This document shows, piece after piece, positions 32,321 through 62,501 of a stretch of DNA of 64,000 bases. Numbering within the stretch: the stretch's first letter is position 1; each line of letters begins with the position of its first letter. The DNA comes from Candidatus Syntropharchaeum caldarium. Lineage in GTDB: Archaea > Halobacteriota > Syntropharchaeia > Syntropharchaeales > Syntropharchaeaceae. The DNA lies in NCBI GenBank assembly GCA_001766815.1, contig LYOS01000002.1:39777-103776 (forward strand). Direction: 5' to 3'. Under the pieces are notes generated by a model, which ran no database searches, was not told the origin of the DNA, and saw only the letters and a list, made by a program, of their open reading frames with translations. A program made the translations under genes and the position numbers.

Positions 32321-33394
32321 CTATTTTAGCTGACCGTACTTCCTGGTTGCTGCAACCATTGCCTCGATGTTTTCATCAGGTGTCTTCACGAAGAAATCGC
32401 ATCCAGGAGAGACAACATCGATCTTTGCATTTTCGATGATATTTTTCACCCACGCATCGATCTTATCCGCACTATTCTTCTTCTTGAGAAGTGACATCGT
32501 TGGCAGGTTTCCAGCGAGCGCGACACCTGTTCCAGCAGAATCAACACTCTCCCGTGCCTTTACTGCATCGGTCTTCTCATCGATTACAATCATCTTTGCA
32601 CCAACCTCGGCACAATCTTTCATGATTGGCCCGGCTGTACCTGACATTGTAAGAATCTCCATTGGAGATTTTGCAAATATCTCGCTGATTGGTGCTTTGA
32701 ATAGATCAACAAAGTCCTTTGGTGAGACATTGTCACAGCAGGCACCGTCTTCCCTGTACACGACATAGTCTGCGCCTGCTTCCTTGTAGATCTTTCCGAG
32801 TTCGATCGGAAGATCCAGCACTGCATTATAGAACGCCTTCACCTTCTCTGGATCCGTCCTCACCAGCATCATGAACTGGATCGTATCAAGGACGTATCCG
32901 AGCAATGTCGTGAAAATTCCCATTGACCAGACAAATATTGGTACCTCACCATAGTACTTTTCATGGAGTATCTTGAGGGCCTCTGTGATCACAGGAACCC
33001 TTCCTGAATTTGCGATATCATCCGGGATTGTGAGATCAGAGGGCTCCTTAATCTCGACACCATCTTTTGTGAAGCCAGGTCGCAGAACACCTGGCCAGAG
33101 GATCTTACCCTTCTTGAGCTGTTTCTCCCTGAAGTCCACAGCCATACCAAGTATCTCTGCCTCGACTACCGCATCAAATGGCACAACCACACTTTCAAGC
33201 CCAAATTTCTCATAAGCCGCGGAACCGAGTATAGCCATCTTTTCAGGATCTTTGTGAGCTTCAGGCCATCCTGCATTGAATTCCTTCATCAGGTTCTCTG
33301 TGTATGTCCCAACTCCCGGGCAGGCGCAGGGTATCCGATCGATCTCCCCTTTCTTGCCTTCCAGGATCAACTTCATCCTCTCGTACGAATTCAT
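32321..33394 (-). CDS. uroporphyrinogen decarboxylase (URO-D) family protein, MtaA/MtbA-like methyltransferase
   Basis: 357 aa. 'ERMKLILEGKKGEIDRIPC' N-terminus, 'VVVPFDAVVEAEILG'. A canonical HxC zinc motif is not obvious. Confidence 0.65.
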   Translation of the reverse strand: MNSYERMKLILEGKKGEIDRIPCACPGVGTYTENLMKEFNAGWPEAHKDPEKMAILGSAAYEKFGLESVVVPFDAVVEAEILGMAVDFREKQLKKGKILWPGVLRPGFTKDGVEIKEPSDLTIPDDIANSGRVPVITEALKILHEKYYGEVPIFVWSMGIFTTLLGYVLDTIQFMMLVRTDPEKVKAFYNAVLDLPIELGKIYKEAGADYVVYREDGACCDNVSPKDFVDLFKAPISEIFAKSPMEILTMSGTAGPIMKDCAEVGAKMIVIDEKTDAVKARESVDSAGTGVALAGNLPTMSLLKKKNSADKIDAWVKNIIENAKIDVVSPGCDFFVKTPDENIEAMVAATRKYGQLK

Positions 33395-34646: not shown

Positions 34647-35381
34647 TTATGGGTAGGTATAACTTTCCACATAGGCGTTTTCGTAGCCAGACTCTGTCAC
34701 GTTGTCACCGAGTGCCTGGAAGTTATCGACTGTCCACTCGCCATCCTCATCCTCTTCGGCATCGAAATCAAGGACAACATTCTTCGTCCATGAGATGTTG
34801 ACACCAACGCGGGTATGACATCCAATGCATGCCTCGTTCGAGTCGATCATAAGGTCATCATCGATCGCCTGCTGGATGAATGCGTTGTGTGCGGCCTTCG
34901 TCCCATTTCTGCCACCGGCATCATAGGAGTACTGGTAAGGATCGTTTGTCTCATCGCCGTTGTAATCACCAACACCATCTGGCTGATCGAATCCACCCGC
35001 GTGTGGGTAACCACCGAGCCCATCATTTCCATACTCATGGCAGATCATACATGCGATCGTCTCTGCTGCGTGCGAGGTCGTACCTGGGGTTGAACCTGAG
35101 GTATCACCTGATGCAACACCTGTTGGCTTCTGCACCTGTGAGGAGTTCACCCTGTGACAGTCACACCCAGGGGATGCAAGGCCTTTGTGCACACCATTAT
35201 CAGAATCGATCATCTCTGCGTTGATATCGCCATGACACTTCACACAGGGTAGCTGGTTTCCATCATCACTCAGGTTATACCAGCTGTGCTGTCCACTGAA
35301 GAGTGCTGCTGTCTGTGGGAGTGCGAATATTCCGATTGCTACGATTGCAACCAGTAGCAGTCCAGTTGTATTCCTTCTCAT
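34647..35381 (-). CDS. membrane-anchored multihaem c-type cytochrome (3 CxxCH + 1 CxCH)
   Basis: N-terminal TM anchor. CVKCH, CMICH, CIGCH plus 'GCDCH'. GGAGGTGA 5 nt upstream. Paralogue of 42871..43566. Confidence 0.85.
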   Translation of the reverse strand: MRRNTTGLLLVAIVAIGIFALPQTAALFSGQHSWYNLSDDGNQLPCVKCHGDINAEMIDSDNGVHKGLASPGCDCHRVNSSQVQKPTGVASGDTSGSTPGTTSHAAETIACMICHEYGNDGLGGYPHAGGFDQPDGVGDYNGDETNDPYQYSYDAGGRNGTKAAHNAFIQQAIDDDLMIDSNEACIGCHTRVGVNISWTKNVVLDFDAEEDEDGEWTVDNFQALGDNVTESGYENAYVESYTYP

Positions 35382-35671
35382 CTATCTCACCTCCTTCTCA
35401 GTTGTTCAGATTTTGATTTCTGGGTTTCTCTCGTCTCCAGATTTTTTAGTTTTGAAAGAGGTGGTACGAGATTTTAAATTTTATCGCATCTCTTCCTCTT
35501 ACCTCTACGTCTATCTACTCGCGTATAGTTTATAAAAGAGATGGGTGTGATCATTTAGAAAAAAAGTTAATATTAATGATTAATACTCACTTTTGACCGA
35601 TTTTAATAAATATAACATAGTTATTTCATAATTGTAATAAAAAATCCCTAAGAGATAGTCCGGGACGAAAG

Positions 35672-36160
<489 letters not shown>

Positions 36161-36166
36161 TTAAAA

Positions 36167-37075
36167 CTATACTGTCTCAGATGAGAAATAGATCGTATCA
36201 CCTGTTTTCAGATCATTGAGAAGTTCACGGTTTTCTGTCACTGTGCCCACGATGTTACTTGCTTTGAAGTTCTCGCCTGTTGGCCCATATTTTTCACTTG
36301 GTTTGAGTCGTATGCCTATCGTCCCCGCACCTTCTTTTGCCATATTTGTCACACCAATTGTAAAGCTCTCCATCACATCAGGGGTATTCTCTGGCATTAT
36401 ACTCCGCTTATATCCTGCTCGTTCATCGAAGAGAACGAACGCACGGTATTTCTTCTTGACGCTCAGTTTTCCAACACCAGCCCTCATAAAGGTTGCATAT
36501 CTGAAGTAGTGAAGTGTCTGGTCTATATTTTCACATAGTTTTATCCTGAGGATCTTATCTGATGATATGCCGTATGTCCTGACCTCTCCTGTTTTAAGAA
36601 TGGATATCGTATAGACTGGGTTCTGTTCTACAATGATTGCGTCGTCCTCGATCGCGCCCTCCCGGATTTGATGGATTCCACGCGCACTGAGCATCCTGTA
36701 TGCCTCCTCCTGTTGCATTCCGATCGCCATTATTCGTGGTGGTTCAACAGAAAGCATAACCTCATCGGATGCCTTCAGCCCTTCCAGAACCTCTGTATTC
36801 TCCAGTATGCCCACAACATCGTGCGATCTTGAGGGTAAAACATTGCGTCGATAGATGTAAACATTACCAATGCCATTTCCCGTGTTTCTCACTGTTACAG
36901 TGTTACTTGAACGAAAACCTGTGGGATCGTCACCATTTCCATAGAAATCAGCCGACCCCACGATCTTTACGTACGTATCGTTAATCTCTTCTACCTTCAA
37001 AGTTCGATCTGCTACGACGTAGATATAGTCGCTTGCCTCATTCTCACTGATGACCTTCAATCGTATTTCTTTCAT
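36167..37075 (-). CDS. methanogenesis marker protein 3 (Mmp3/UPF0288)-like, short form
   Basis: C-terminal half 'MPENTPDVMESFTIGVTNMAKEGAGTIGIRLKPSEKYGPTGENFKASNIVGTV' matches my memory of the Mmp3 signature (PEN.P...G.iGvTN....G.iGvR....fGPTGE). ATGA overlap with the upstream gene. Confidence 0.6.
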   Translation of the reverse strand: MKEIRLKVISENEASDYIYVVADRTLKVEEINDTYVKIVGSADFYGNGDDPTGFRSSNTVTVRNTGNGIGNVYIYRRNVLPSRSHDVVGILENTEVLEGLKASDEVMLSVEPPRIMAIGMQQEEAYRMLSARGIHQIREGAIEDDAIIVEQNPVYTISILKTGEVRTYGISSDKILRIKLCENIDQTLHYFRYATFMRAGVGKLSVKKKYRAFVLFDERAGYKRSIMPENTPDVMESFTIGVTNMAKEGAGTIGIRLKPSEKYGPTGENFKASNIVGTVTENRELLNDLKTGDTIYFSSETV

Positions 37076-37617
37076 GTCTGCAGGCTCTGGAAGACCTGAT
37101 CAAGTCTTTGTGTACTCAGGACTTCCTCTGATGCTACCACCAGAAGTGCGTTCTTCTCTTTCTTTACATTCCATATCCTGAACCCCTCTGGCGCCAGTAA
37201 TTCAAGGAAGGTGATGATATCGTCGAGAAATTCTTCAGACGGCTCAAATATGACAGATTGCATGAAATCCTCCTCTATCTCGGTCTTTACCAAAATTTCA
37301 AGTCTATTTGGCTGTTCCACCATACTGCGTCCAAAGGCATCCCAGAGGTATCGAAGCAACGTTGGCGCGTATGTTTCATCCTTTATGCGAAATATCGTCT
37401 CTCCATCTTCACTTTCGCTCTCCGCTATATTTGCTATTGTAACAAATGATCCACGAGCTTCTTTATAGGCAAGACGAGCCGCAAAGACTCCTTCTTCGGG
37501 ATCAATCTCCATCTCTATCTTATCTATTTCTACTGGAAAGTCATGTGCTCTGATCTCTGCAACTCTGCGATAGGCATCAGCCCCCTTTGCATCCTGGGAT
37601 CTTACAATAATATCCAT
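37072..37617 (-). CDS. methanogenesis marker protein 17 (Mmp17)-like
   Basis: 181 aa acidic soluble protein. Assignment rests mostly on size and its position between A2 and Mmp3-like genes. No motif verified. Confidence 0.45.
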   Translation of the reverse strand: MDIIVRSQDAKGADAYRRVAEIRAHDFPVEIDKIEMEIDPEEGVFAARLAYKEARGSFVTIANIAESESEDGETIFRIKDETYAPTLLRYLWDAFGRSMVEQPNRLEILVKTEIEEDFMQSVIFEPSEEFLDDIITFLELLAPEGFRIWNVKKEKNALLVVASEEVLSTQRLDQVFQSLQT

Positions 37618-37620
37618 CTT

Positions 37621-39189
37621 TCAGATAATGCCACTTTTCAGTGCGTATTCGATGCCTGTGTCAGTATCTCCGGTGAAGATCGCCTTGCCCTTATCCATTA
37701 CCGTAACCCTGTCACACACGAGCCGTACAAACTCAAGGTCATGGCTCACGATAAGAAACGTGGTCTTATGTTCGTTGCGACGGTTAATAATAGAGTTGGT
37801 TATCTGGTACATTGTCATCTCATCCAGTGTGCCTGTTGGTTCATCCAGTATCATTATCTTGGGGTCCTTGAGGATAATCGATGCAAATATTATCCGATGC
37901 TTCTCTCCCTCGCTAAGCTCATCGGGATATCGTTTCAAAATTCCCTCAATTCGTTCTTCACTAAACCCAACAAGCTCAAGGACGTCATAAATTTTCTCCT
38001 CTAAGATCTCTTCCGGCACTCCTGGTACAAATCCCTGCATATTTCTGTAAACTGTCTGGTATGCGGATAGCCCATATTCCTGGTGAAGTATGGCGATCTT
38101 TTCTTTGACACGCCCCCTTTGTATGCCACGTTCACGCATATCCACACGTTCACCATCCAGTCGAACTGTGCAGACACCTTCAAATTCGGAACTGTCACCA
38201 TTGATAATTGTAACAAGTGTTGTCTTACCTGCACCGCTATGTCCCAGAATCCCGTGTATCTCGCCTTCATAAATATCGAGCGATACGCCATCCAGTGCTT
38301 TTATAACACCCTCATCCACCGTGAAGTATTCCCTGCGAAGATCTCTGCACTGAATTATTGGTTCACCTTCAAAGTTAACAACCTGTTTCTTCGACAGACG
38401 TCGTTCAGCGATGAAACGTTCCATTACCTTGCTTGTCTCTCCCTCAAAGACTGCCTTTCCTTCTATAAGCAATATCGATCGCGGGGCCACCTCAGGTATA
38501 TACGATGTCAGATGTGACGCGATGAACGTTGTTCGCTCTTTCGAGATCTCTTTTATCACATCATACATCTCTTCTGATGATTTGGGGTCAAGCGTTCCCG
38601 TAGGCTCATCAAGCAGAAGCACCATCGGATCTTTTGCGATCTGTCTTGCCATCACGACTCTTTGCTTCTCACCGCCGCTCAGGTCCCGTGCAATATGTTT
38701 GATCCTGTGTTCAAGTGAGACGATCTTCACGATCTCATGTGCCCGTTCCATACGTGCATCGATCGGATAATCAGAGCTATGCAGAGCTGCAAGCACATTC
38801 TCGATAACAGACCGCATCGAATAAATCCCGGTGGCTTCCTGAAACATGATCGCAACCCGCCGTTTTATCACATCGCGCATACCTTTATCAATCTCCCAGA
38901 AGTCAACCCGCTGGAGTTCCATCGCCGAACCACAGCGCGGGCATTCTGTGCGTGATGGAGTATCAACCCGCTCGCAATTCTCACAAAAGCGAATGTTGTA
39001 GTATATATGCCCGGCTGTTGGTCTATATTCCTCCATGCCGCGCAATGTGTACATTAGTGCGCTTTTTCCAGCTCCACTTGCTCCAATAACACCGATTATA
39101 TCGTTTTCTTCCACGCTCAGGTTTATATTATCGAGTATCTTGTTGCCTCCCTTTTCGATGGAAAGATTTTCTATCTCTATAATCTTCAT
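37621..39189 (-). CDS. atwA: methyl-coenzyme M reductase system component A2 (AtwA), double ABC ATPase
   Basis: Two ABC cassettes (Walker A 'GASGAGKSA' and 'GHSGAGKTT'; signatures 'LSGGEKQRV' and 'LSEGEKHRI'). Cys4 insertion 'CENCERVDTPSRTECPRCG' after the first P-loop. Track start 39207 is TTG; ATG 39189 gives the 'MKIIEIENL' start. Confidence 0.8.
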   Translation of the reverse strand: MKIIEIENLSIEKGGNKILDNINLSVEENDIIGVIGASGAGKSALMYTLRGMEEYRPTAGHIYYNIRFCENCERVDTPSRTECPRCGSAMELQRVDFWEIDKGMRDVIKRRVAIMFQEATGIYSMRSVIENVLAALHSSDYPIDARMERAHEIVKIVSLEHRIKHIARDLSGGEKQRVVMARQIAKDPMVLLLDEPTGTLDPKSSEEMYDVIKEISKERTTFIASHLTSYIPEVAPRSILLIEGKAVFEGETSKVMERFIAERRLSKKQVVNFEGEPIIQCRDLRREYFTVDEGVIKALDGVSLDIYEGEIHGILGHSGAGKTTLVTIINGDSSEFEGVCTVRLDGERVDMRERGIQRGRVKEKIAILHQEYGLSAYQTVYRNMQGFVPGVPEEILEEKIYDVLELVGFSEERIEGILKRYPDELSEGEKHRIIFASIILKDPKIMILDEPTGTLDEMTMYQITNSIINRRNEHKTTFLIVSHDLEFVRLVCDRVTVMDKGKAIFTGDTDTGIEYALKSGII

Positions 39190-39224
39190 AGACCCACTCC
39201 GTTGCAAACTTAAATCAAGGCTTA

Positions 39225-40004
39225 TTAATTCTTTTCTGTTTTTGCAGACAATGGCATGAGCGTAGAGGTTCTGTAATATAGATCATTTATACGCGCATAT
39301 TTTGCACCCCAGAACTCAACCACCTCTTCAACCGTGCCTGCTGTACCTGTGGCAGTATAGGTAACCTCCATCCCCTCCTCAATCTCTGGTGCTGTTTCGA
39401 TGGCTTTCTCTTCGCCAGACTCGACAAAGACGATTCGTTTTATTTCCTCAGTACTTCGCAGTGGAGTGATATGCCCCCTGATGACACCTGTGATAATACC
39501 AACAACCCTACCTTTTGTGAGTCTCTTCTCTGGTAGGGGGCGAACATACTTGGTATCAACCCCCTCACGTGCCAGATCCTCGTAATCGATTGGACACTGG
39601 CATATCACGATCGATGGCTTATCGAAGAGTTTGAGAAAGTAGATTTGCTTATAAATTATATGTCGTGCGACATTGCCGTGGTGAAATATGAGTAGTTTTG
39701 AACGTTCGATCCGTTCGCGCTCATCCTCTTCCAGTTTGAATTCAACCTTCACAAAATGCTGTTCCGCCTTGATACCTTTTCCCTTACGAAGGACAAGCAC
39801 CGATGCTTTGATCCCATACGCACGCAACCGCTGTGTTATATCACAGACTGGATATGGGATGTGTCGATCCGAAAAGTCCATCGCGATTATCAGTGCATCC
39901 TCGCCATACTCATCCGAGTGCGTGCCTCCACGCGCTATACCGTAACCAAGCCCCCCTCCAAACTTTGCCCTACAGTTGACATAGTGGGCCTTTCTGCCTA
40001 TCAT
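39225..40004 (-). CDS. mcrC: McrC-like protein (MCR operon protein C homologue) with C-terminal extension
   Basis: 'MIGRKAHYVNCRAKFGGGLGYGIARGG', 'YPVCDITQRLR', 'ASVLVLRKGKG', 'PSIVICQCPIDYEDLAREGV', 'TKGRVVGIITGVIRG' follow the McrC pattern. About 60 extra C-terminal residues. AGGTG upstream. Confidence 0.75.
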   Translation of the reverse strand: MIGRKAHYVNCRAKFGGGLGYGIARGGTHSDEYGEDALIIAMDFSDRHIPYPVCDITQRLRAYGIKASVLVLRKGKGIKAEQHFVKVEFKLEEDERERIERSKLLIFHHGNVARHIIYKQIYFLKLFDKPSIVICQCPIDYEDLAREGVDTKYVRPLPEKRLTKGRVVGIITGVIRGHITPLRSTEEIKRIVFVESGEEKAIETAPEIEEGMEVTYTATGTAGTVEEVVEFWGAKYARINDLYYRTSTLMPLSAKTEKN

Positions 40005-40018
40005 AAATCACACCTTTC

Positions 40019-40879
40019 TTATACAGATGGAACACTCAGCGGAAGTTCAATGATTATATCGTCCTGTGTGCCCCTCTTTATGCTGCCAAACTCACCGAGT
40101 TTACCAAAGTAAAATTCCATCTCTCCGAGTTTCTCTGCATATTCATCATAGGATGCGTTCACTCTGAGACCGCTCATTTTGAGTACCACGTTCACACCAA
40201 ACTTTGATTCAATCTCGGTTTTTATATAGGGATAGGTTGCAGGAACATCAGGTCGAAGGCTTCCGATGATCGAGATTACACTCTCCATAAATGCACCTAT
40301 TATCCGTTTATCATCAGGATCATCGAACATCGTTGGTATCCTTGTAATAGACGGGATGAAAATCAGCTCATCATCAGACTCAAGATCTGCATAGCCTGTC
40401 ACGATCACAGGTACATTAAGCCTTCTGCAGAGTTCCATCTTCTCACGGATACAGTGCTCAAAACATCCAAACATGAAGATCGCCAGATCGTGCTCCTCGA
40501 TCATCATCCGCTCTTCCCTCATCAGAATCGCCTTTCTGCCAACGCCTCTTGCAGGTGCGATTGTGTTCACCTTTGCGCCAGCCTGCCGCAGTGTCTCAAC
40601 CGTGCTGCAGTGTGGAAAGGGTGTGTGATGAAGATTAAATGAGGGGATGATCACCGCAACTTCGATACCATAGAGCGGTACAGTGATAACCCTTCCTGAA
40701 TGCTTACGGAGAGCTGCCCGTTTACGCAGAATGTTCACCGATTCATGATCTATCATCACATCAAATTCTGCAACACCACCCATCTGGTCTATGTTCAGGA
40801 CAAAACCGCCAAGATCCTCTATGAACTCAATTATTTCGTCTGATTCAAACGCATTTCCGATATATTTTAGCGGCATCAT
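40019..40879 (-). CDS. methanogenesis marker protein 7 (Mmp7)-like
   Basis: 'EFIEDLGGFVL', 'NLHHTPFPHCSTVETLRQAGAKVNTIAPARGVGRK', 'IEEHDLAIFMFGCFEHCIREK', 'NVPVIVTG' resemble the Mmp7/McrC-related pattern as I recall it. Confidence 0.6.
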   Translation of the reverse strand: MMPLKYIGNAFESDEIIEFIEDLGGFVLNIDQMGGVAEFDVMIDHESVNILRKRAALRKHSGRVITVPLYGIEVAVIIPSFNLHHTPFPHCSTVETLRQAGAKVNTIAPARGVGRKAILMREERMMIEEHDLAIFMFGCFEHCIREKMELCRRLNVPVIVTGYADLESDDELIFIPSITRIPTMFDDPDDKRIIGAFMESVISIIGSLRPDVPATYPYIKTEIESKFGVNVVLKMSGLRVNASYDEYAEKLGEMEFYFGKLGEFGSIKRGTQDDIIIELPLSVPSV

Positions 40880-40897
40880 TTTTATTCCACGCCGTAT

Positions 40898-42679
40898 TCA
40901 GCTCAGATGGAAATACCTGTATGCATCTCCCGTATCCTCAATCTCACCGCCTTTTGAGACAAAGTCGGCGTACTTTCGATTGACAAATTCATTACAGATA
41001 GTCTCAGGATCGCCTGTCATCAGAATTTCGCCACGGTGTATCAGCAGTGCCCGGTGTGCAAGCTCCTTCACCGCATCCAGTTGATGGCTCACGAGGATTA
41101 TTGTGAGGTTGTGCTCCTTGTTGAGGGTTTTTATTGCATTTATACATTTACGCAGCGAGATAGGATCGAGATCTCCGAAAGGCTCATCGAGCAAGAGGAC
41201 CTCTGGCTTCTCCGTCATGTGAAGAGCAAGCGCAACCCGTATCTGCTCACCTGCACTGAGTTCATATGTATAGTGATCCATGAGAGAAAGAGGAAGATCG
41301 AGCGCTTCAAATATGGGTTTCATCCGCTTTTTAGCTTCGTCTGCAGGTATCGTTGGGAATAACTTCCTCAGAATCCCTGGATCAAGTTTCAGCTCCCTGA
41401 GCATGTCTTTCATCTCATCTTCTGGCAGATCTGCAAGTCTATAAAGTACATCCAGCTTCACGTCACTTAGTCCCATTTCTCTCGCCCGTTCGACCACCTC
41501 AGGCAGGAATCGCACGTCCTTTAGCCCAAGTTTCTGCTCAAAGAGGTGCAGCACGATTTCATAGTGCGTGAGCGCAAACTCCTGATGTAACGTTGAGATG
41601 TTAAGACGCGCCTTTACAGCATCATAACCATAGGTACAGATATTTGTCCAGCGCTCTTCACCACCATCGTTGATCCTGTAGGTAACCTCACCAAACTGAG
41701 GAGGTTCAAGTCCTGCAAGCAACCTGATCAGTACTGTCTTTCCAGCAGCACATGGTCCAACGAGTGCAAGTATCTCGCCTTCGTAGATATCGAAGTTGAG
41801 ATTTTTCATCTGGATCGTCTCGATAAACTTTGCACCTGATGTGGTTATCTGGTAACGCTTCCAGAGGTTGGTGAGGCGCATCTTCGGCACTTCTCGTGGT
41901 ATCGATGGCTCAACGGGTTGATCGATCTTTGCAACAAACTTTTTAATGATCTCATCTGGTTTCCCCTCATCAACCACCTTTCCTTCCTCAATCCAGAGCA
42001 CCCTATCAGCGAGAGTTTCGTGTATTTCTGGCATATGAGAGACAAATACAACAGTAACACCAGCATTCTCATTTATTTTTTTTATCGCATCAAGCATCAT
42101 CCCTCGACCAACAGGATCTATCATGGTGGCTGGTTCATCTACAAGAAGAACACGTGGATTTGCTGCGAGCTGTCTCGCAAGCAGAACACACTGCTTCTCA
42201 CCGCCGCTGAGGATATTGTAGTAGTAATACTTCTTATCCAACATGCCAACAATATCAAGAATCTCGGAGGCCCGTTTGAAGAGTCGTTTATAGTCGTTTG
42301 AACCTGTTGTAGGTATCTCTTCAAAACCTGTCTCAAGCTTTCCCAGTTTTCGCATCACATTATTTATCACACTCTCAGGCCATAGTGCAAACGAACGTTG
42401 CAGATGCAGTGCGGTTATCTTCTGGAGTTCAAGCTGTTCATTGGAATTAGAGTCAGGTGTGAGTGTGATACCATCAACCCTTACAGATCCTTCTTTAAAT
42501 GATTCCACGCCCCTTAAAATTCGCAAGAGTGTGGTTTTTCCTGCACTGCTCCTTCCTAATATACCCAGAACTTCACCCTCATCGACTGAGAACGAGACGT
42601 TCTCAAGAGCAGTGTGTTCTTTCTCAATCTTTGAGATCTGATAAGTCTTCGTTAAATTTTCTACTTCGATGATCTTCAT
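40898..42679 (-). CDS. second component-A2-like double ABC ATPase (paralogue without Cys4 insertion)
   Basis: 'GILGRSSAGKTTLLRILRGVE' (A2-like first P-loop), 'LSGGEKQCVLLARQLA', second cassette 'GPCAAGKTVL' / 'LSAGEQIRV'. GGAGG upstream. First gene of the operon. Confidence 0.75.
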   Translation of the reverse strand: MKIIEVENLTKTYQISKIEKEHTALENVSFSVDEGEVLGILGRSSAGKTTLLRILRGVESFKEGSVRVDGITLTPDSNSNEQLELQKITALHLQRSFALWPESVINNVMRKLGKLETGFEEIPTTGSNDYKRLFKRASEILDIVGMLDKKYYYYNILSGGEKQCVLLARQLAANPRVLLVDEPATMIDPVGRGMMLDAIKKINENAGVTVVFVSHMPEIHETLADRVLWIEEGKVVDEGKPDEIIKKFVAKIDQPVEPSIPREVPKMRLTNLWKRYQITTSGAKFIETIQMKNLNFDIYEGEILALVGPCAAGKTVLIRLLAGLEPPQFGEVTYRINDGGEERWTNICTYGYDAVKARLNISTLHQEFALTHYEIVLHLFEQKLGLKDVRFLPEVVERAREMGLSDVKLDVLYRLADLPEDEMKDMLRELKLDPGILRKLFPTIPADEAKKRMKPIFEALDLPLSLMDHYTYELSAGEQIRVALALHMTEKPEVLLLDEPFGDLDPISLRKCINAIKTLNKEHNLTIILVSHQLDAVKELAHRALLIHRGEILMTGDPETICNEFVNRKYADFVSKGGEIEDTGDAYRYFHLS

Positions 42680-42870
42680 GTTAAAACCTCCTTAGAATCC
42701 TCAGAATCATCATAATCTTAACCTGTTCATCATATATAAGAAGATCTATTTTTGGATTGAGGAGGGTTAATCATTTAATTTTTCTAAAGAGCTGTCATGT
42801 CCACAACCTTTATATCTCGCACATGCGATAAGTTAATGTAAGGTAAAGAGTCAGAAATGATCAGCGAAAG
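42680..42870. promoter_or_regulatory. divergent promoter region between the MCR-activation operon and the cytochrome operon
   Basis: 191-nt AT-rich spacer. TATA-like 'TTTATATC' at 42809-42816 (+), 55 nt before ATG 42871. 'TTATATAT' on the minus strand at 42732-42739, about 55 nt before ATG 42679. Confidence 0.3.
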
Positions 42871-43566
42871 ATGAAAAAACACACACCGCTTCTGCTCATG
42901 ATCGCCGTACTTGCGATCGGTATATTCGCACTCCCCCAGAGCGTTGCGCTTTTCTCAGGTCAGCATTCATGGTATAATCTCACTCCACAGGGTAACGATG
43001 TACCCTGTGAAAAATGTCATGGCGACATCGCTTCAGAGATTGCATCAAGTGGTGCACACAAAAATATCGAGTGCGGCGGATGTCACAGAGCAGATGCAAG
43101 GGTTGGCTATGCCGGGGACTGGGAGGGGGATGTGGATCCAGGACAGGGTGCACACGCGGCATCGACTATTGAGTGTATGATCTGCCATGACAGGGGCACA
43201 AACTTCACACACTCCAATATCGGAAGTGATGAGTGTTCTGACTGTCACACCTCGCCTTTTGTGGCGCCTGGGGCAGGAGGCTTCAATCTGACTGATCCTT
43301 CTGTCTTGCCGTCTGATACCGGCACAAAAGCCGCACACATGCAGTTTGTCCATGACGCGATCAACGAGACGCTCATGGAGGGTGCAAACGAAGCCTGTAT
43401 AGCATGTCATACGCATGTGGGTGTCAACATCACATGGACGAAGAACGTGGTGCTCAACTTTGAAGCATCAGAGAATGAGACTGGAAGCTGGTCGATCCCT
43501 GAGTTTTCAGCAACAGGGGATAATGTGACAGAATCAAACTATACAAACACCTGGGTAAATACTTAA
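42871..43566 (+). CDS. membrane-anchored pentahaem c-type cytochrome
   Basis: N-terminal TM anchor. CEKCH, CGGCH, CMICH, CSDCH, CIACH. Paralogue of 34647..35381. Confidence 0.85.
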
Positions 43567-43579
43567 AAGGGGGGTTAAA

Positions 43580-46500
43580 ATGAATGAAGGAATGAAAAAG
43601 GTCAAAATCTTTATTCTCGTATTGCTTATGATCGCATCACCGTTTTCGATGCTTACTGCAGGTGCTGCTATCGATGGCTCAAAGCATGACTTCACGTTTG
43701 AGAGTGAACTTACGCCAAATGGTGCGTGTTCCGCCTGCCATGAGTGGCGTACCATGACGTGGGCACGAAACCTGAGTGAAGAGGAGGCTTATTTTAACCA
43801 GACAGAAGATCCAAACTACGTCCATGATCCTACCATAAAATGCTATGACTGTCACAGTGGCACTGCGGCAGACAATGATCCCAGTTACACGCTTTTTATC
43901 AATACAACACTTGGCAGATATATCCCGCAGGACGTTGCCTTTGATGCCAATATGAAGGGAAACGATCTATCCTATGACAGCTCACCCTCTGATGATGAGA
44001 CCGGATACTACGAGTCATCGACATCAGGCCACTACATAAAGACGAACGCAACAGGCCTGACGAATATTGAACCTGGTGATAAGCTCCCATGCACCGACTG
44101 TCATGAACCACACGAGACAGAACCCACAAATGAGGTCTTCATAAAAGGAAGCTCCGAATATCCACTTGGTGGAAAGGTTGTATCAAACTTAAAAGCAAGC
44201 ACAAACACCCGATCTGGTACTGGCACTGGACGTGAGATCTGTGCGGTATGTCATGGATACAGCGATTCAGGCATAGCTGTCAGGTTTGTTGATGTTAATC
44301 CCCTCTATGGCTCGACCGATAGGATCGTTCAGACCCCGTCAACGGTATCCCAGCATGCAGAGAATGATTCAACACCATGCACAGACTGCCACTCACATAG
44401 CACCCCGGCATCGTATTTTGTCGGAATCAGCAGCCACAACACCCACTTAACCGCCGAGTTTGGACCCAAAATATCCTCGTGCACAGGTGCCGATGGCTGT
44501 CACAGTGAGGGAAACTTCAGCCGCTTCAACGACAACCTCACACTCTCAGCGACTCATGCCTGCGATAACTGCCACAGCCCGAATGGAACATACAATGGTG
44601 TCACCCTTGCCAAGGCAAGCTGGGAAGAAGGCGTCTACAACGGCACAGACTTAAAATCAAGCAAGGAGAAGTGGTGTGCAAGCTGTCATGATAAAGAACC
44701 TGCCAGCTCTATGGGGAATGGAAGCGGTATAAACGCCCCGAATATCGTCGGGATGAATCTAAGCGGTAGCTGGCAGAGCCCCGTCGCTATTATAACAAAT
44801 CAGACGGAAAACGTCAGTGATGCAACAAACCTGCTGGATGGTGACGTTGAGACCGGTGCGAGTGTGAGTGGGGCATCCCAGATCGTCTTTGATCTTGGAG
44901 AGAGTACAGAAGTCTCCCATATCAGGCTTTACACATCTGCCAGTTCCACGGTCAAGTGGGAGGTGTACGGGAGCAATGATCTTTCAAACTGGACGAGAAT
45001 ACTCTATGGTCAGGATGTGATCTTTTCCGCTCCTGCATGGCTTACAGGTGAAGATGAGGGATGGGATGAGAGCAGGGTTGACAGGATCATACCTGTGAGA
45101 TACATCAAGCTCTACAAGAGGAGTCCGTGGCCCGTGGGGAGTGGTTCTCAGCGTGAGTTTGAGTATAAAGCAGATATACGGTATGGATACTATACCACCG
45201 GTCACAAGATTGCCTGCACCAACTGCCACAATAGAAGTAGCGCGCATATCGATGGAACCTCACAGACCTACAACACAACCCTTGATAACTATCAGACAGG
45301 TTTCAGGCTGAAATATCTTGAGGTTGAGAATGAAACCGTCCCCTCACTTGAGATACCAAGAGTCGACTGTAACTGGGGTGATTATCCAAAAACCTCAAAC
45401 GACTTTGCACTCTGTTTCTCATGCCACAACAAGTATAACCTCCTCGGGGATGCGAGTGGTACAGGCGACTACCATAAGGATCCACCCCAGACAAACTTCA
45501 GGAACAACACCACAAACGCCCACCTCATCCATCTGCAGGGAAGGGGATACTGTGGAAACAATCCTGACTGGGACTCAGACTGGAACGGCACAGCAGACTC
45601 ACCACAGAGTTGCACCGCGTGTCACAATGTTCATGGCTCTCCTGCTCCTGCGATGACAAGACACGGAGAACTTGTGAGTATCAACGATACCCTTGAGAAG
45701 GCTCCCCTCCTGAACCTGAAGTACATAAACGCAGACGGAGAGCTTGATCATAATCTCTCAGATGCCACCCAGAGTATCGGCGGAAGGACACAGTTCTATG
45801 GTGCAGGACCCGGAAACGTTGCGAAGAATAAGGTGTGTAACATGTGCCACAATGATCAGATTACCTATTATCGCACACCAGTACCTCCCACCGTAACCTG
45901 TGGTAATGGATCAGGAACAGGAGGCTGCCACAGCCCCACCGCATACTCTTCCTCTGCAGCAGGCAGCCACAATACTCATCTAACCGCACCCAGGGGACCA
46001 AACATAACATCCTGCACAGGTGCTGATGGCTGCCACAAAGGCAACCACACCGGTCTCTTCAACGATGGTTTACCGCTATCAACAACCCACAGATGTGATA
46101 ACTGCCACAGCCCGAACGGGACATACGATGGTGTGAATGACTCCACAATCGGAGCAAAACCCAACTGGGAAAATGGAGTGTACAACAATTCCACGACATT
46201 AAAGTCAGGCAAAGAGAAGTGGTGTGCAGGATGCCATGATGACGAACCGGCGTATAGTAAGGCAGAGTACAGCGAGGTCATCGTGGATAACACCGAAGCT
46301 TCTTTTGCTGGTTCATGGAGTACATCCTCTCACTCAACCGATTATGGAAGCAACTACAGATACAATGGTGCAGGTTCAGGCACTGAAACAGCAACGTGGA
46401 CACCTAACCTGCCAGAATCTGGTAATTACTCGGTCTATGCATGGTGGCCCATATATGTTTCAGGAAGAGCAACGAATGCACCGTACACCGTGTACTACAG

Positions 46501-49500
46501 CAGCGGGTCTGAGACGGTAAGGGTGAACCATAAAGCAGGAGGGGGTGGCTGGAACTACATCGGCACATGGAACTTCTCTGCTGGAACATCAGGTTACGTT
46601 GTGCTCAGTGATGATGCCGATGGAATTGTAATGGCTGATGCCATCAGATTTGTTAAAGGCGGGAATGCCACGTACGCACCCAATATCATCGGTGATAATA
46701 CAAGCTATGGGTTCTATGCAACAGGTCATGGTCGAAGCGGTGTTGTGGATTGCCTGTCCTGTCATGATTCAGATAAAACCCATATCGATGGAATTCAGCG
46801 AACGTATGAAGCAAATGAGACAACAGGTGATGCGATCACACCCTACAATAACAGCTACCGTTTAAAGGATCTTGATGGGTTGCCAGCGATGGTAATGCCA
46901 AGAAAAACAACATCCACATTTAATATGCAGGCCTACTGGCGGGATTTTAACCTCTGTTTTGACTGTCACAACAGGTTTGAGGTGCTGGGTGAAACATCAT
47001 CGGATATCAGTAACACCAACTTCTGGAATAATGATTCAAGTATCTCAAACTCACACTGGCTCCATCTCGGGATAGATAGCAAGCACTTTGACTCTGATTA
47101 TGACAGTTCTGCAGACTCACGTGAGAGCTGCATCGCATGCCACAACGTACACGGTTCGCCAACAGGACCGATGATAAGACATGGAGAACTTATAAGCTAT
47201 CCAAGTACAGCGAACAAGGAGCCTGCGCATAATTTCTACTATCTTCTCCCTGGAGATGGTTCAGCCACTGCCAGGTTTACACCCACACTTGCAGGCGGAA
47301 CATATGATATCTATGCATGGTGGAGCTCGCACTCAAACCGTGCGACAAATGCAAAGTATATAATATACCATGATGGTGGTAGCGCTGAGGTAATCGTCAA
47401 TCAGGAGGAGAACGGCTCACAGTGGAACCTCCTTGGCGAGTACAATATTACAACTTCAAACGGCACGGTCGTTCTGACATCAGATGGCGCCAACGAGTAC
47501 ATCATGGCAGACGGAATCCAGTGGAACAGAACAGATGGCGGAGATACTGTCTATGTTGATGAACCTGATGCCACCTATACTGGAAGCTGGACTGTGGAGA
47601 CCTCAAACCCAGACAAATATTACGGAGATAGCACGAGATACTACTATGCACCCATCAGGAATGCGACTGCAAACGTGAATAAGAGTACTGGCGGCACCTT
47701 CTATGTAAGCGGTGTAATCACTGCAAATCATCTCTGTCAGATGTGTCATAGCAACGTCCAGTACAACAGAGACCCGTATACCGGACCAAGAGTTCCATAC
47801 AGTGATGCAACCCCTGATAACATCTCAAACTTTGAGAGTAACACTGTAACATTCACGGCTTTCGTTACCGATGTGGATGAGAACATAGCAAATGTTACCA
47901 TCGATCTCTCAAGTTTTGGTGGTAACGTTAGCCAGAGGATGTACGATGACGGAACCCACGGTGATACCAAGGCAAATGATGGTGTGTATAGCTACCAGTT
48001 CACAGTGCCTGCAGGTGTTGATGATGGTCCAAGGAGTATCACAGTCACCGCAACAGACGATGATGGTAATAGCGGTGAAGGTCTGATCGATCTTACCGTC
48101 TATCAGCCAGGCGCACTGATCATCGATGATGAAGATGCAAGCTTCACCGGAACATGGGGAGAATCCACGGCAGACGAGACGACGTATGGAACAGGATACC
48201 GCTGGCATGCTTCAGGCACCGGGAGCAATACAGCAACGTGGAGTGTCAACATCACAACCGCCGGTAACTACACCGTCTACGCACGATGGGTTACAGGAAG
48301 CAACCGTGCTACAGATGCACCCTACACGATTAACTATGAAGGAGGCAACGAAACAGTAAGGGTTTCACAGCGGATAAAAGGAGGAAAGTGGAACCGTCTT
48401 GGCAACTACTACTTTGACGTCGGCGAGTACTCGGTCGTTCTCACAGATGATGCTGATAACTACGTTATAGCTGATGCGATAAAGCTTGAATCTGAAGCCC
48501 CTCCAGCTTACCACCCATGGCCAATCGCCGACAATCCCGATGCTGAATACAACGGAACAGGATGGTATACTGGAACAGCCGATAGCGGTTATTATGGCTC
48601 AGACTTCTACTACCATGCCTCAGGCACAGGAGAAAATACCGCAACATGGACACTCGCAGTTCCAGAAGCTGGAAAGTACGATGTGTACGCATGGTGGGCA
48701 GACGGCTCAAACCGTGCAACCAATGCACCCTATATGATTAACTACGAAGGAGGCAGTGAAACAGTAAGGGTTTCACAGAAAATAAATGGAGGAAAGTGGA
48801 ACCTGCTTGGGACATATTCATTCAATGCAGGTAACTATTCAATAGTACTCAGTGACGATGCAGATGGATTCATCATTGCCGATGCAGTGAAGTTTGAGCT
48901 TAACCAATCTGTATGGCTCACCCCTTCCTCAATCCAGTGCACAAACCTCACCAACGCTTCACTCCTGATCGATAACAGCACATCAACTGCCAACGCGCTT
49001 GATACCGGAGATGAACAGTATGTGGTCTTTGATCTTGGTGCAAGATACACCGTTCCATCGATCAAGATGTACACTGATGGTAGCGGCAACTACACATGGG
49101 ATGTCTATATGGGGGATAACATATCTGATCCTGCCTGTTGCAACCATTCAAGCTGGGGCACGCCTGTCCTTGAGAACTGGACTCCCTCTACTTCGGGGTG
49201 GAACGAGGTCAACCTGACAACACCCGCCACAGCGAGATACATAAAGCTCATGCGAAACGATACAGGTGATGATCTTGCCGCAGACAGCCTCTATGAGTTC
49301 ATGTTCGACCCACCAACGGCAACGCTCACCTTTGAACTCCACTCATACGCTGATATGCATATCTATGACCCGGAGGATCGCCATCTCGGGATGAACTACA
49401 CGACAGGCGAGATCGAGAACCAAATTCCCGGAGCAGTATATGACTTCGGTGATGTCCAGACTGCTACCCTGCCAAAGCTTGCAGTGGGGGAGTACAGGGT

Positions 49501-50482
49501 GATACTCAAAGGAACGGGGACAGGTGGATATGAACTGACCGTCACGGGCGAGGATGATGATGGTGTACTCACCAGTGAGACCGTTGCTGGAAATATCACA
49601 GCAGGTGAGATCCATGATGCAACCGCAGCGGTTAACACCACAGACATCACAAACATCACGATAGCACTCGAAGATGAGCCAGAGCCAACGATCAATGCAG
49701 ACGGAGTTGATAATGTCACACTCGCTGATCTCTATCCTGATATCGATGAGGTTGATATCGACCCCCTCGATCCTGAGACGATCGATACCACAGGGATGCC
49801 AGATATTGCCATTCACACCGCCTACATGGTCAACGCCTCAGGAGATGGTGAGTACACACTGAGGTTTGAGGATGTGGAGAACGCTGAGCTTATCACTGCA
49901 GTCTATAAGATCAATGAAGAGGGTGAATGGATCGAGCTTCCAGCAGTGATCAATGGATCGAGAGTTGAGGTTACGATGGAAGCAGGTGATCCACCGGTTA
50001 TTTTTGCATATCCAGCACCAGAAACACCGACTACAGATGACACAAACACCGCATCAACAGGTGGTAGTGGTGGTGGGGGCGGCGGAGGTGCAGGCCCGAA
50101 GGACTCAGATGGTGATGGTGTACCCGATCGTCAGGAGCAGCTTGATGGGACAGATCCTCTCAACCCTGATACAGATCATGATGGACTGAACGACTTTGAG
50201 GAGCGTGTGGCAGGAACAGACCCGAACAATCCTGATACCGATGGTGACGGAATAATCGATGGTGAAGATCCGGATCCAGCGATTATGAACTTCACACAGA
50301 AGGTGAAGAAGACCTTCTCTGATATTTCAGATACCATCTTTAGATCGGGTTCAGAGAATGCGCCGGTACCATCTTCAGAGAGCGGTGCAGAAGAGAAGAC
50401 GCCAGGGTTTGGAAGCTTTGCCTGGATCGTAGCAGTTCTTGCTATGGGGTATCTGGTAAGAAGGGAAAAAGTTGAAAAATAG
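43580..50482 (+). CDS. giant secreted multihaem c-type cytochrome with discoidin-like and golvesin-C-like domains, TSP3 repeats and PGF-CTERM anchor
   Basis: GGGGGG 6 nt upstream and a signal peptide. 17 CxxCH, 2x CTGADGCH and 1x [11 protein letters not shown], all within about the first 1390 aa. Poly-Gly linker, 'DSDGDGVPD...DTDHDGLND...[14 protein letters not shown]', and terminal '[27 protein letters not shown]'. Confidence 0.9.
48134..48900 (+). repeat. tandem duplication (period 408 nt) inside the giant cytochrome gene
   Basis: AACCGTGC at 48302 recurs at 48710. The GAAACAGTAAGGGTTTCACAG...GGAGGAAAGTGGAAC block is nearly identical in both units. Each unit encodes one about 136-aa golvesin-C-like domain. 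Confidence 0.8.
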
Positions 50483-60205: not shown

Positions 60206-60967
60206 ATGAATGATGGAGGGGTTAGCATAACACTGGAACGGGTAGCTACCGGAATTATGGGACTGGACGAGTTGATTGGTGGCGGTTTTCCCGCAAAGAC
60301 CGTAAATCTTATTTCAGCACCTTCAGGTAGTGGAAAGACACTCTTTGCCATGCAGTATATATACAATGGTGCGAAGGATCATGGAGATGTTGGAATCTTT
60401 ATCACGACAGAGGAAGGCTATGGCAGCATACAGCGGGCAATGAGTGCATTTGGAATGGATATCACCAGATACGAAAACGAAGGTAAACTTTTCATCTTCG
60501 ATATCGCAGAACTGAGGAAAGAGATTGGTATCTCTAAATCCGAAAGACAGATAATGACGTTTGAGGCATTGCAGGATGCACTGGCGGGGATATTGAAGTA
60601 CACCCGAGCAAAAAGACTCGCTCTTGACTCACTTGTGGGAATAGGACTTGCGTACCATTCTAACACCAGTCTGCGTGAAGATATCTTCAGGTTCAGCTGG
60701 TATCTTCGCGATATGAATCTAACATCACTTTTGACGACCGAGTCTGTTGAAGGCGTAGCAGGACTTACAAGATATGGGGTCGAACAGTTCATCTCAGACT
60801 CACTCATTGTTCTCGGGCTTGAGGATAACAACGGCGAACTCGTGCGAACGATCAGGGTGAGAAAGATGCGTTTTACAGCGCATGATCGTGGAAAACACCC
60901 GTTCCTCTTCACTTCAAAGGGTATAGAGGTCTCACCCGGAGAGAAGATTTTTTTAGTTCATGGATGA
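60206..60967 (+). CDS. single-domain KaiC/RecA-superfamily ATPase
   Basis: 'TGIMGLDELIGGGFPAKTVNLISAPSGSGKTLFAMQYI' (intact Walker A), Walker B 'RLALDSL'. Confidence 0.75.
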   Translation: MNDGGVSITLERVATGIMGLDELIGGGFPAKTVNLISAPSGSGKTLFAMQYIYNGAKDHGDVGIFITTEEGYGSIQRAMSAFGMDITRYENEGKLFIFDIAELRKEIGISKSERQIMTFEALQDALAGILKYTRAKRLALDSLVGIGLAYHSNTSLREDIFRFSWYLRDMNLTSLLTTESVEGVAGLTRYGVEQFISDSLIVLGLEDNNGELVRTIRVRKMRFTAHDRGKHPFLFTSKGIEVSPGEKIFLVHG

Positions 60968-62501
60968 AGCCGTAGCAATATCGTCTCGATTGCTGGAAGG
61001 AGTGATAAGAGAGATTGGTCTGATCATCGGTTCAGACCCGATCAGAATGTTGATCTCGCGCCTATCCAGGGATGAAGAGGTTCTGAAATCACTTGAAGTT
61101 GGAGATAATTTCAGTGTGTGTTTTGCTGGTCTCAATAACTCAGATATCGATTCCGGGCAAACATTGAATGCACTGAAAATACTCATGGATCACCTCGTAG
61201 ATTTTTCAGCGAATATTTTTGGTGATGAAGCTTCAGAAAGGATGATGGCTCGTGCACTGGAACCCTTTGATCAGGAGATTGCACGAATGTGCGAACTCAA
61301 TCTTGCAGCGTTTCTCCCTCGCATTGTTGATACTGAAATACACGAGAAGAAGCGGGGTGTGGCTGCAATAATTGACAAAAACAGGATTGAACAGGTTCTT
61401 GTGATATTTGAAGATATTTTATCTGCTTATCTGGAAGATGCGAGTGCCATCGGCTTGATTGAGCTCTACAGACGAAAGATAAGTTCACTACCACCCATCA
61501 ACTCCATATCTTCACCAATAGTGATTACAGATGATGGTAGTGTAAGCCTCTCCAGACTTAATAATGCTGATCTGGATGTGAGACTGCTGGTTGATGAACT
61601 CGCATCGATATCCGACTCATTTATCGATACCGCATCTTTTCTAATCGGAAAAAAAGAGGCACTAAGTCGCGCAGAAAACAGTATAAACCCGGTCCTTGCA
61701 AGATTTCAGCCTTTAACCGATGAACTCGGGATAACAGATAAAATTCTAAAAGGTAATCTTGCAAGACGAATCTCAACAGGTGTGAACGGTTTTGATGAGA
61801 TTATTGAAGGAGGTTTCCCACGATCAGGCTCGATTCTTCTGCAGGGACCACCGGGCATTGAGAAAGACGCTTTCATCAACGCATTCCTGAGATCAGGACT
61901 TTCAAAGGGTTATGCTGCGATGGCGGTTCTTTCAAAGTACACGCCAGCAGACCTCAGGATTCAGATGCGAGATACTGGAATTGATTTGATCAAGTACGAG
62001 GATGAAAATGTATTTGGCATGGTTGACTGGAACGCATGGCGCGGGGAAAACGTGAACGGGGTTGAGGAGGGAGATCGGAGTTCGGTTCTTCGATCATCAA
62101 GGGATCTTTCGTATCTGAGTATAGCTATAAACAAGGTACTTGCCAATCTTGATGAAGTTCCGACACGGCTCGCAGTCATTGATATACTCTCACCTGCCAT
62201 AAATGACTTTGATTTTGAGACGGTTTACGATTTTACCCAATCACTCAGGATAAAATTCAAGAAAGAGGATGTTACAGCTTTATTTTTGATAGATAATGAG
62301 ATGCATGATGGTAAATCACTATCTGCGATTCAGGAGATCTTCGATGGAGTGATCGAGATCGAGCGTCAACGGGTAGATGATCAGATCATAAGAAAGATCG
62401 GTGTGATACACATGGATAGAACATACTTTGATTCAAAATATAAGACGCTTAAACTCTCAAGGGAAGGTATTAAAGTTGTATCAGAGGAGGAATCGTTATG
62501 A
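60960..62501 (+). CDS. KaiC-like protein with degenerate P-loop and about 270-aa N-terminal domain of unknown function
   Basis: C-terminal 'STGVNGFDEIIEGGFPRSGSILLQGPPGIEKDAF', where GIEKD replaces G.GK[ST]. 8-nt overlap with the upstream KaiC-like gene. Confidence 0.55.
   Translation: MDEAVAISSRLLEGVIREIGLIIGSDPIRMLISRLSRDEEVLKSLEVGDNFSVCFAGLNNSDIDSGQTLNALKILMDHLVDFSANIFGDEASERMMARALEPFDQEIARMCELNLAAFLPRIVDTEIHEKKRGVAAIIDKNRIEQVLVIFEDILSAYLEDASAIGLIELYRRKISSLPPINSISSPIVITDDGSVSLSRLNNADLDVRLLVDELASISDSFIDTASFLIGKKEALSRAENSINPVLARFQPLTDELGITDKILKGNLARRISTGVNGFDEIIEGGFPRSGSILLQGPPGIEKDAFINAFLRSGLSKGYAAMAVLSKYTPADLRIQMRDTGIDLIKYEDENVFGMVDWNAWRGENVNGVEEGDRSSVLRSSRDLSYLSIAINKVLANLDEVPTRLAVIDILSPAINDFDFETVYDFTQSLRIKFKKEDVTALFLIDNEMHDGKSLSAIQEIFDGVIEIERQRVDDQIIRKIGVIHMDRTYFDSKYKTLKLSREGIKVVSEEESL

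Follow-up and report, generated by a model that had tools for sequence, protein, structure and literature searches.

Which enzymes does the machinery for nickel reduction serve in a butane-oxidizing archaeon? The question is raised by a locus in a 64,000-nt stretch of contig LYOS01000002.1 of Candidatus Syntropharchaeum caldarium (here Ca. Syntrophoarchaeum caldarius). The whole stretch is referred to as the window, and all coordinates are window positions. Reduction of the nickel cofactor in methyl-coenzyme M reductase (MCR)-type enzymes received a structural solution only in 2025, and in a methanogen only. We know of nothing on the activation of the alkane-activating alkyl-coenzyme M reductases (ACRs), and the activation machinery limits the heterologous production of active ACR and MCR. 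The minus strand carries six close-set open reading frames (ORFs) at 36167-42679, which encode proteins of 593, 286, 259, 522, 181, and 302 residues in transcription order. The gene order is A2L - mmp7 - mcrC::DUF2098 - atwA (A2) - mmp17 - mmp3 (C-terminal half) - ribC, where A2L denotes a homologue of component A2 that has no zinc-binding motif. We hold with good confidence that this operon is the ACR reductive-activation module of S. caldarius.

Accessory subunits encoded in the operon

The MCR activation complex of M. maripaludis (8S7V/9H1L; Ramirez-Amador et al., Nature 2025, PMC12176620) has the accessory subunits McrC, Mmp7, Mmp17, Mmp3, A2, and DUF2098, and the S. caldarius operon encodes the same six. 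Families were assigned from NCBIfam and Pfam profile scores relative to their cut-offs and from matches in the Protein Data Bank (PDB), with 8S7V/9H1L as the reference complex. The top PDB match of every one of the six proteins is the corresponding chain of this complex. The 522-residue A2 scores 559 bits with TIGR03269 (cut-off 517) and matches 8s7v_K over its full length (E = 6.5e-122). It has the zinc-binding motif CENC-x10-CPRC, and both nucleotide-binding domains (NBDs) retain their Walker A, Walker B, and signature motifs. The A2 residues that contact the McrA latch in M. maripaludis, P396/F399, correspond to P/I. Mmp17 scores 113 bits with methan_mark_17 (TIGR03291; cut-off 67) and 133 bits with Pfam DUF2113, and it matches 8s7v_G with E = 4e-12. 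Mmp7 reaches 188 bits with methan_mark_7 (cut-off 349) and only 22 bits with the McrC model; it passes Pfam MCR_C at 170 bits and matches 8s7v_H with E = 9e-31. McrC reaches 180 bits with met_CoM_red_C (cut-off 213.5) and matches 8s7v_I with E = 6e-45.

The profile scores of Mmp17, Mmp3, and A2 thus exceed the family cut-offs, and those of Mmp7 and McrC formally fall short. An original prediction made from the DNA sequence had named sub-threshold scores as evidence that would count against it, yet we read Mmp7 and McrC as unambiguous divergent orthologues on the strength of their reciprocal scores, PDB matches, and conserved ligands. The cluster ligands, listed from PMC12176620, are kept in seven of seven positions, four in McrC and three in Mmp7. 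The FeSI/FeSII ligands C12, H49, C55, and H118 of McrC correspond to C11, H48, C54, and H115, positions that do not vary among 11 homologues, and the FeSIII/FeSII ligands H84, C90, and C143 of Mmp7 correspond to H85, C91, and C143. The locus has homologues of all six accessory subunits, with conserved cluster ligands and ATPase motifs, in a close-set gene array, and purifying selection acts on at least four of the genes.

The gene packing is as predicted, with six minus-strand genes followed by ribC. Intergenic distances from the first to the sixth gene are 18, 14, 35, 3, and -4 nt, where the negative value is the ATGA overlap of mmp17 and mmp3. The 35-nt gap before the A2 gene shrinks to 17 nt if an upstream TTG is the start, which would give a protein of 528 rather than 522 residues. 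The distance from mmp3 to ribC is 30 nt. Because no gap exceeds 35 nt and one gene pair overlaps, the six genes and ribC would form a single seven-gene transcription unit, with ribC probably its seventh and last gene. The six proteins correspond to OFV67986-OFV67991 of Ca. Syntrophoarchaeum caldarius by exact-sequence look-up, and their GenBank entries have borne MCR-related names from the deposition of the genome onward. The same string of genes is found, unchanged, in an independent Logan assembly (L001).

The operon lacks mmp5, mmp6, mmp15, and mcrABG, as had been noted, and none of them was found elsewhere in the window by a profile scan that covered most of the long ORFs, the 2300-residue ORF and some short ones excepted. 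Syntrophoarchaeum genomes are reported to have an mmp5 (TIGR03271) orthologue (PMC6474303), which is absent from the ORFs scanned; mmp5 is therefore located elsewhere.

The McrC-DUF2098 fusion and the half-length Mmp3

The third gene encodes an McrC domain at approximately residues 1-195 and a DUF2098 domain (PF09871) at residues 207-258 (approximately nt 39231-39386). An AlphaFold2 (AF2) model of the fusion (pLDDT 83, pTM 0.83) matches McrC (8s7v_I) with a TMt of 0.81 and 44% identity. It also matches the 47-residue chain 8s7v_L, taken as the DUF2098 subunit, with a TMt of 0.86, a root-mean-square deviation of 1.1 Å, and 37% identity. In M. maripaludis, DUF2098 (10.6 kDa) is purified together with the complex, where a loop of McrC holds it (PMC12176620). 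By analogy, the fusion would turn this structurally observed contact into a permanent one. Since DUF2098 is present as a fusion to McrC, the operon encodes all six accessory subunits, and the prediction that one unit unites all non-MCR activation subunits is borne out in a stronger form than claimed. The fusion is independent "Rosetta-stone" evidence for DUF2098 as a true subunit. No paper describing it was found; the literature search gave only the 2025 structure paper.

The fusion is also present in the nearly identical metagenome sequence P0001, in a metagenome-assembled genome (MAG) labelled Methanospirareceae (P0002/L005), and in P0003, P0146/L053, and P0147/L054, three metagenome proteins or contigs without assignment. 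The P0146 and P0147 contigs are 2-3 kb, too short for gene context. All five recovered genomes of GoM-Arc1 ethane oxidizers carry it (Argoarchaeum and Ethanoperedens; L011-L015). It is found at 0 of the 37 remaining McrC loci, mostly from anaerobic methanotrophic archaea of group 1 (ANME-1) and MAGs labelled Methanosarcinales, where McrC is approximately 200 residues long and no DUF2098 lies within 10 kb. The fusion follows ACR-bearing lineages in this limited sample of 42 loci plus a few metagenome contigs: the carriers assignable to an organism of known metabolism are all alkane oxidizers, and the L005 MAG and the unassigned contigs lie outside metabolic assignment.

The L005 MAG (GCA_054798995.1; Ca. 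Methanospirareceae, ANME-1c label) encodes the closest relatives of the S. caldarius proteins, at 50-63% identity. Its locus reads mcrC::DUF2098 - mmp7 - A2 (557 residues) - A2 (534 residues) at L005 5837-10899, and its zinc-motif-less homologue is on another contig (L009 3661-5382). A second Methanospirareceae MAG (L036) is arranged in the usual ANME-1 manner. GCA_054798995.1 may be an alkane oxidizer or a carrier of both types of system.

The predicted Mmp3-like gene scores above the methan_mark_3 cut-off (249 versus 234 bits), and in that respect the assignment stands, but the protein has half the expected length. Its 302 residues cover only positions 218-501 of the 503-position profile and align to residues 214-495 of 8s7v_J, so that approximately 215 N-terminal residues are missing. 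It is not a full-length Mmp3 of approximately 500 residues with both domains and the Y404/F405 clamp. Among homologues with E ≤ 1e-10, full-length proteins have approximately 500-519 residues, shorter entries have 417 and 168 residues (the latter labelled partial), and the 302-residue form occurs only in S. caldarius and one sister lineage. The sister lineage, represented by two Joint Genome Institute (JGI) metagenomes, has the identical layout A2(522)-Mmp17(181)-Mmp3(302)-RibC(154) with the ATGA overlap of mmp17 and mmp3. Amino acid identities across A2-mmp17-mmp3-ribC are 82-97%, with 82% for Mmp3. The ratios of nonsynonymous to synonymous substitution rates (dN/dS) are 0.11 for A2, 0.09 for Mmp17, 0.22 for Mmp3, and 0.05 for RibC. 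The shared layout and the low dN/dS indicate that the short mmp3 is functional and neither a remnant nor an artefact.

A tblastn search found no N-terminal half of Mmp3 elsewhere in the window. Two full-length Mmp3 proteins gave weak matches of their N-terminal halves at 39751-39933 (+), antisense to mcrC (E = 0.015-0.02, 27 bits), which were judged spurious. In the M. maripaludis complex, the Mmp3 N-terminal domain is described as mobile in the cryo-EM map, and the C-terminal domain forms, together with A2, hydrophobic patches that grip the McrA latch (PMC12176620). The retained part of the S. caldarius protein includes the counterpart of this C-terminal domain. These features suggest that the mobile N-terminal half is dispensable in this lineage, and the conserved half-length Mmp3 argues against a need for that domain.

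The zinc-motif-less first gene

The first gene of the operon had been predicted to encode an extra A2 paralogue. It is not a copy of A2; it is a member of a distinct and widely conserved sister family that lacks the zinc motif. The best family match of the 593-residue A2L is A2 (TIGR03269) at 291 bits, far below the cut-off of 517. The Cys4 motif (CxxC...CxxC) is absent, and the alignment to the 9H1L A2 skips A2 residues 59-101, the region of the zinc motif. The low score and the missing motif place A2L outside the A2 class. Both NBDs of the protein have a complete set of Walker A, Walker B, and signature motifs, the zinc motif is missing, and the closest characterized relative is A2; in a neighbor-joining tree without support values, the protein falls within the zinc-motif-less clade. 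An AF2 model (pLDDT 86) has 8s7v_K (A2) as its top PDB match with a TMt of 0.76. Members of the family are 565-603 residues long, are 44-63% identical across ANME-1, GoM-Arc1, and Methanobacteriaceae, and share a helical insertion of approximately 75 residues in NBD2. Mean column identity is 62% in an alignment of 42 sequences that extends from Methanobacteriaceae to Syntrophoarchaeum. To judge from these sequences, A2L is not a recent A2 duplicate and represents an old, highly conserved sister family. Such homologues (MA_3967) have been used only as an outgroup and without an assigned function (bioRxiv 10.64898/2026.03.18.712670).

The position of the A2L gene differs among lineages. It heads the activation operon in S. 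caldarius, the tightest association with activation genes among the loci examined, and it is unlinked to these genes in ANME-1 (L006), in Methanobacteriaceae (L008), and at L009. In GoM-Arc1 (L007, L055, L056) and at L010, it is followed by a paired IF-2B-family gene after a 2-nt gap or with a 4-nt overlap. Genes of the MCR-maturation type occur within approximately 10 kb of it in GoM-Arc1. At L007, these are mmp17-mmp7 and CfbE, and at L055 (10001-16735) and L056 (134-10889), Oxidored_nitro (NifD/CfbD-like) and SufBD/SufC genes are on the opposite strand. L056 also has, approximately 7 kb downstream, DUF2102-DUF2112-BcrAD_BadFG, which is read as mmp6-mmp5-mmp15. The link of A2L to activation is suggestive but unproven. 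Most likely, the operon has recruited A2L as a further remodelling ATPase related to MCR/ACR. It is possible, though doubtful, that the whole family is an unrecognized general component of MCR/ACR maturation or activation, for example a second remodelling ATPase without a redox-sensitive zinc switch. If A2L does act in maturation or activation, the S. caldarius operon is the first direct indication of its role from a genome. Its place in the operon supplies the first testable idea of what this orphan ATPase, highly conserved in methanogens, may do.

Client enzymes, alternative explanations, and genomic setting

Ca. S. caldarius is a thermophilic butane oxidizer with four mcrBGA-type ACR operons, all of which lack mcrC and mcrD (PMC9081873). 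The original prediction had offered the operon as the housekeeping activator of a methanotroph's MCR, which is wrong. Because the host is a butane oxidizer with four ACR operons, the likely client is an ACR and not a methanotroph MCR. The rival proposal of a machine for a different target was right to the extent that ACR replaces MCR as the target, and it is otherwise not upheld. By analogy with the methanogen system, the targets would be the four ACRs, and the operon is presumably the only such set of the organism. Homology to the M. maripaludis complex (PMC12176620) predicts that McrC, Mmp7, and Mmp17 hold three L-cluster-like [8Fe-9S-C] clusters, an electron wire that would end approximately 9 Å from F430. 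A2 in its ATP-bound state would dock on the gamma subunit, and its ATP hydrolysis would power the reduction of Ni(II) to Ni(I). The S. caldarius complex is expected to assemble and work in the same way.

The 522-residue A2 groups with the two A2 genes of L005, which adjoin another McrC-DUF2098 fusion, and apart from the ANME-1 A2 clades (neighbor-joining tree without support values). Co-evolution of A2 with ACR versus MCR has been reported (bioRxiv 10.64898/2026.03.18.712670), and the grouping of the S. caldarius A2 with L005 rather than with the MCR-type A2 of ANME-1 fits that pattern.

Several observations weigh against assigning the operon to the ACRs. Mmp7 and McrC score under the NCBIfam equivalog cut-offs. 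The residues Y404/F405, which clamp the McrA latch in M. maripaludis Mmp3, are K/K in S. caldarius, and the latch contact is therefore different or absent. The four ACRs that one module would have to serve are divergent. Database searches returned no second Syntrophoarchaeum McrC, Mmp3, or A2L, but the rest of the S. caldarius genome lay outside those searches and could hold a second set. The operon might accordingly be a specialized paralogous set for some of the ACRs or for a non-ACR target, with a canonical housekeeping set elsewhere. The sub-threshold Mmp7 and McrC and the truncated Mmp3 would suit such a set, and there are precedents for two A2 types or copies in one genome: the two A2 genes of Methanoliparia are distant from each other, one being of the MCR type and the other of the ACR type (bioRxiv 10.64898/2026.03.18.712670), and ANME-1 genomes hold two in tandem. 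We nevertheless consider a specialized set improbable. No second homologue labelled Syntrophoarchaeum appeared in the McrC, Mmp3, or A2L searches, a canonical set would find no canonical MCR to serve in S. caldarius (PMC9081873), every cluster ligand is kept, and the sister lineage maintains the same truncated arrangement under purifying selection. The short Mmp3 and the fusion could also be artefacts of assembly or gene calling, since the genome is a MAG in which frameshifts or mis-joins can yield truncations and fusions. That explanation is hardly credible: the independent Logan assembly has identical genes, the two JGI metagenomes place a 302-residue Mmp3 with 82% identity at the same overlapped position after mmp17, and ten further independent sequences carry the fusion (P0001, P0002/L005, P0003, P0146/L053, P0147/L054, and L011-L015), for which the model is confident (pTM 0.83). 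The independent assemblies effectively refute it.

A rather stronger challenge, to which we give somewhat less than an even chance, concerns the extent of the module. A2L could be functionally unrelated to activation and swept into the unit as a neighbor, as ribC would have been, leaving a module of five genes from mmp7 to mmp3. In its favor, A2L falls below the A2 profile cut-off and lacks the zinc motif, its orthologues stand apart from activation genes at L006, L008, and in the L005/L009 MAG, and in GoM-Arc1 and at L010 they are tightly paired with the IF-2B-family gene instead. Against it, A2 is the closest relative of A2L by both sequence and structure, and the GoM-Arc1 neighborhoods of A2L repeatedly contain MCR-maturation genes (L007, L055, L056). 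In S. caldarius, A2L lies 18 nt upstream of mmp7 and behind the only promoter-like element. Named A2L members among the best 120 matches all come from archaeal lineages. The holders named at order or family rank (Methanophagales/ANME-1, Methanospirareceae, Methanosarcinales, Methanoperedenaceae, Argoarchaeum, and Methanobacteriaceae) are lineages that we take to include carriers of MCR or ACR.

Taken as an ACR activation module, the S. caldarius operon differs from both characterized methanogen systems. As in the M. maripaludis complex, the seven ligands of three [8Fe-9S-C]-type clusters are kept, and A2 has two intact NBDs and the zinc motif. Unlike in M. maripaludis, DUF2098 is fused to McrC, Mmp3 is half-length with Y404/F405 replaced by K/K, a zinc-motif-less A2 homologue and ribC are co-encoded, and the presumed clients are ACRs. 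The mcrC gene is in the mcr operon in M. maripaludis (PMC12176620), whereas it is in the activation operon in S. caldarius. The MCR activation operon of M. acetivorans encodes A2 (MA_3998) with Mmp5, Mmp6, Mmp17, Mmp7, Mmp3, and Mmp15 (bioRxiv 10.64898/2026.03.18.712670). A2, Mmp17, Mmp7, and Mmp3 in one activation unit are common to both organisms. The S. caldarius operon is not of the M. acetivorans type, in that it lacks mmp5, mmp6, and mmp15 and has mcrC, DUF2098, and A2L. In M. acetivorans, mcrC is inside mcrBDCGA, and the presumed A2L counterpart MA_3967 is outside the activation operon. Homologues of the MA_3967 type resemble the 593-residue protein in having two NBDs and no zinc motif, and they are widespread in methanogens, ANME, and alkane oxidizers. 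The complex itself (PMC12176620) and the M. acetivorans operon with its different content were already known. New are the six accessory subunits in one operon of an ACR organism, the McrC-DUF2098 fusion, the conserved short Mmp3, and the recruited zinc-motif-less ATPase; a literature search on Syntrophoarchaeum and atwA found nothing beyond the 2025 structure paper. The locus is a compact natural cassette of approximately 6.5 kb and six genes with every known accessory subunit, which could be co-expressed with ACRs.

ANME-1 offers a third arrangement. A tandem A2 pair stands just ahead of mcrC in most recovered ANME-1 genomes and likewise in several MAGs with a Methanosarcinales or Halobacteria label (L016, L024, L027, L030, L031, L035, L036, L038, L040, L042-L045, and L048-L052; approximately 6.6-10.6 kb in loci with full flanks). 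As in S. caldarius, mcrC adjoins A2 and lies outside the mcrBGA operon. These loci mostly have two tandem A2 genes with the zinc motif followed by an unfused McrC of approximately 200 residues, and they lack mmp7, mmp17, mmp3, and DUF2098 within 10 kb, except for an Mmp17-like ORF approximately 9 kb away in L033. A2 was examined in 11 loci. All copies have the full Cys4 motif, and the two copies present in 7 of the 11 form two separate clades, 'a' and 'b'. Methanogens with several MCR isozymes are stated to encode one A2, and ANME are not distinguished (bioRxiv 10.64898/2026.03.18.712670), which makes this duplication noteworthy.

The features of the S. caldarius locus are collected in Table 1. 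The promoter and terminator scans used bacterial sigma-70 and hairpin consensus patterns, which are not applicable to an archaeon, and the TATA-like box and the oligo-T run were read directly instead. The scan found no minus-strand terminator-like sites inside the unit, which is weak evidence for an archaeon. The TATA-like box is the sole promoter-like element and stands ahead of A2L, where a putative GGAGG ribosome-binding site, also read directly, lies 7 nt ahead of the ATG.

Table 1. Genes and candidate signals of the activation operon in window positions
Feature	Position	Strand	Evidence
TATA-like box TTATATAT, ~53 nt upstream of first ATG	42732..42739	-	direct sequence reading; putative
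A2L, tandem-NBD ABC ATPase, 593 aa	40898..42679	-	A2 homologue without zinc-binding motif
Mmp7 homologue, divergent, 286 aa	40019..40879	-	methan_mark_7, Pfam MCR_C, 8s7v_H
McrC-DUF2098 fusion, 259 aa	39225..40004	-	met_CoM_red_C, Pfam DUF2098, 8s7v_I
Component A2/AtwA, 522 aa from ATG	37621..39189	-	TIGR03269, 8s7v_K
Mmp17 homologue, 181 aa	37072..37617	-	methan_mark_17, Pfam DUF2113, 8s7v_G
Mmp3, C-terminal half only, 302 aa	36167..37075	-	methan_mark_3, 8s7v_J
Archaeal riboflavin synthase RibC	35672..36136	-	ribC_arch 233 bits, cut-off 100.6
Oligo-T run, candidate archaeal terminator, ~30 nt past ribC stop	35639..35644	-	direct sequence reading

The operon is bracketed by paralogous membrane-anchored c-type cytochromes that are 49% identical, at 42871-43566 (+; 231 residues, five CxxCH motifs) and 34647-35381 (-; 244 residues, three CxxCH motifs). 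The former adjoins a gene (43580-50482, +) whose 2300-residue product has 17 CxxCH motifs and carries a membrane anchor at its C terminus. In GoM-Arc1 E37, two paralogous 5-haem cytochromes lie in divergent orientation beside mmp17-mmp7 (L007) and mcrC::DUF2098 (L012). A conserved pairing of cytochrome and activation genes was considered and rejected: the S. caldarius and GoM-Arc1 cytochromes are alike at the level of haem motifs only, although each genome has recurring paralogues.

A homologue of the MtaA/CmuA family of methylcobamide:CoM methyltransferases (32321-33394, -; 205 bits, under the equivalog cut-off) lies approximately 2.3 kb downstream of ribC and 3 kb from the mmp3 stop, with two unannotated genes and one cytochrome gene between. 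A gene resembling aldehyde:ferredoxin oxidoreductase, together with its 4Fe-4S partner gene (14407-16769, -), and a KaiC-domain gene pair (60206-62501, +) are ordinary context with no relation to the operon. At 8563-9489 (+), 27 kb from the operon, the window encodes a DRAG-like ADP-ribosylglycohydrolase (ADP-ribosyl-[dinitrogen reductase] hydrolase; 102-120 bits, under the cut-offs), a curious companion to nitrogenase-related MCR-activation proteins.

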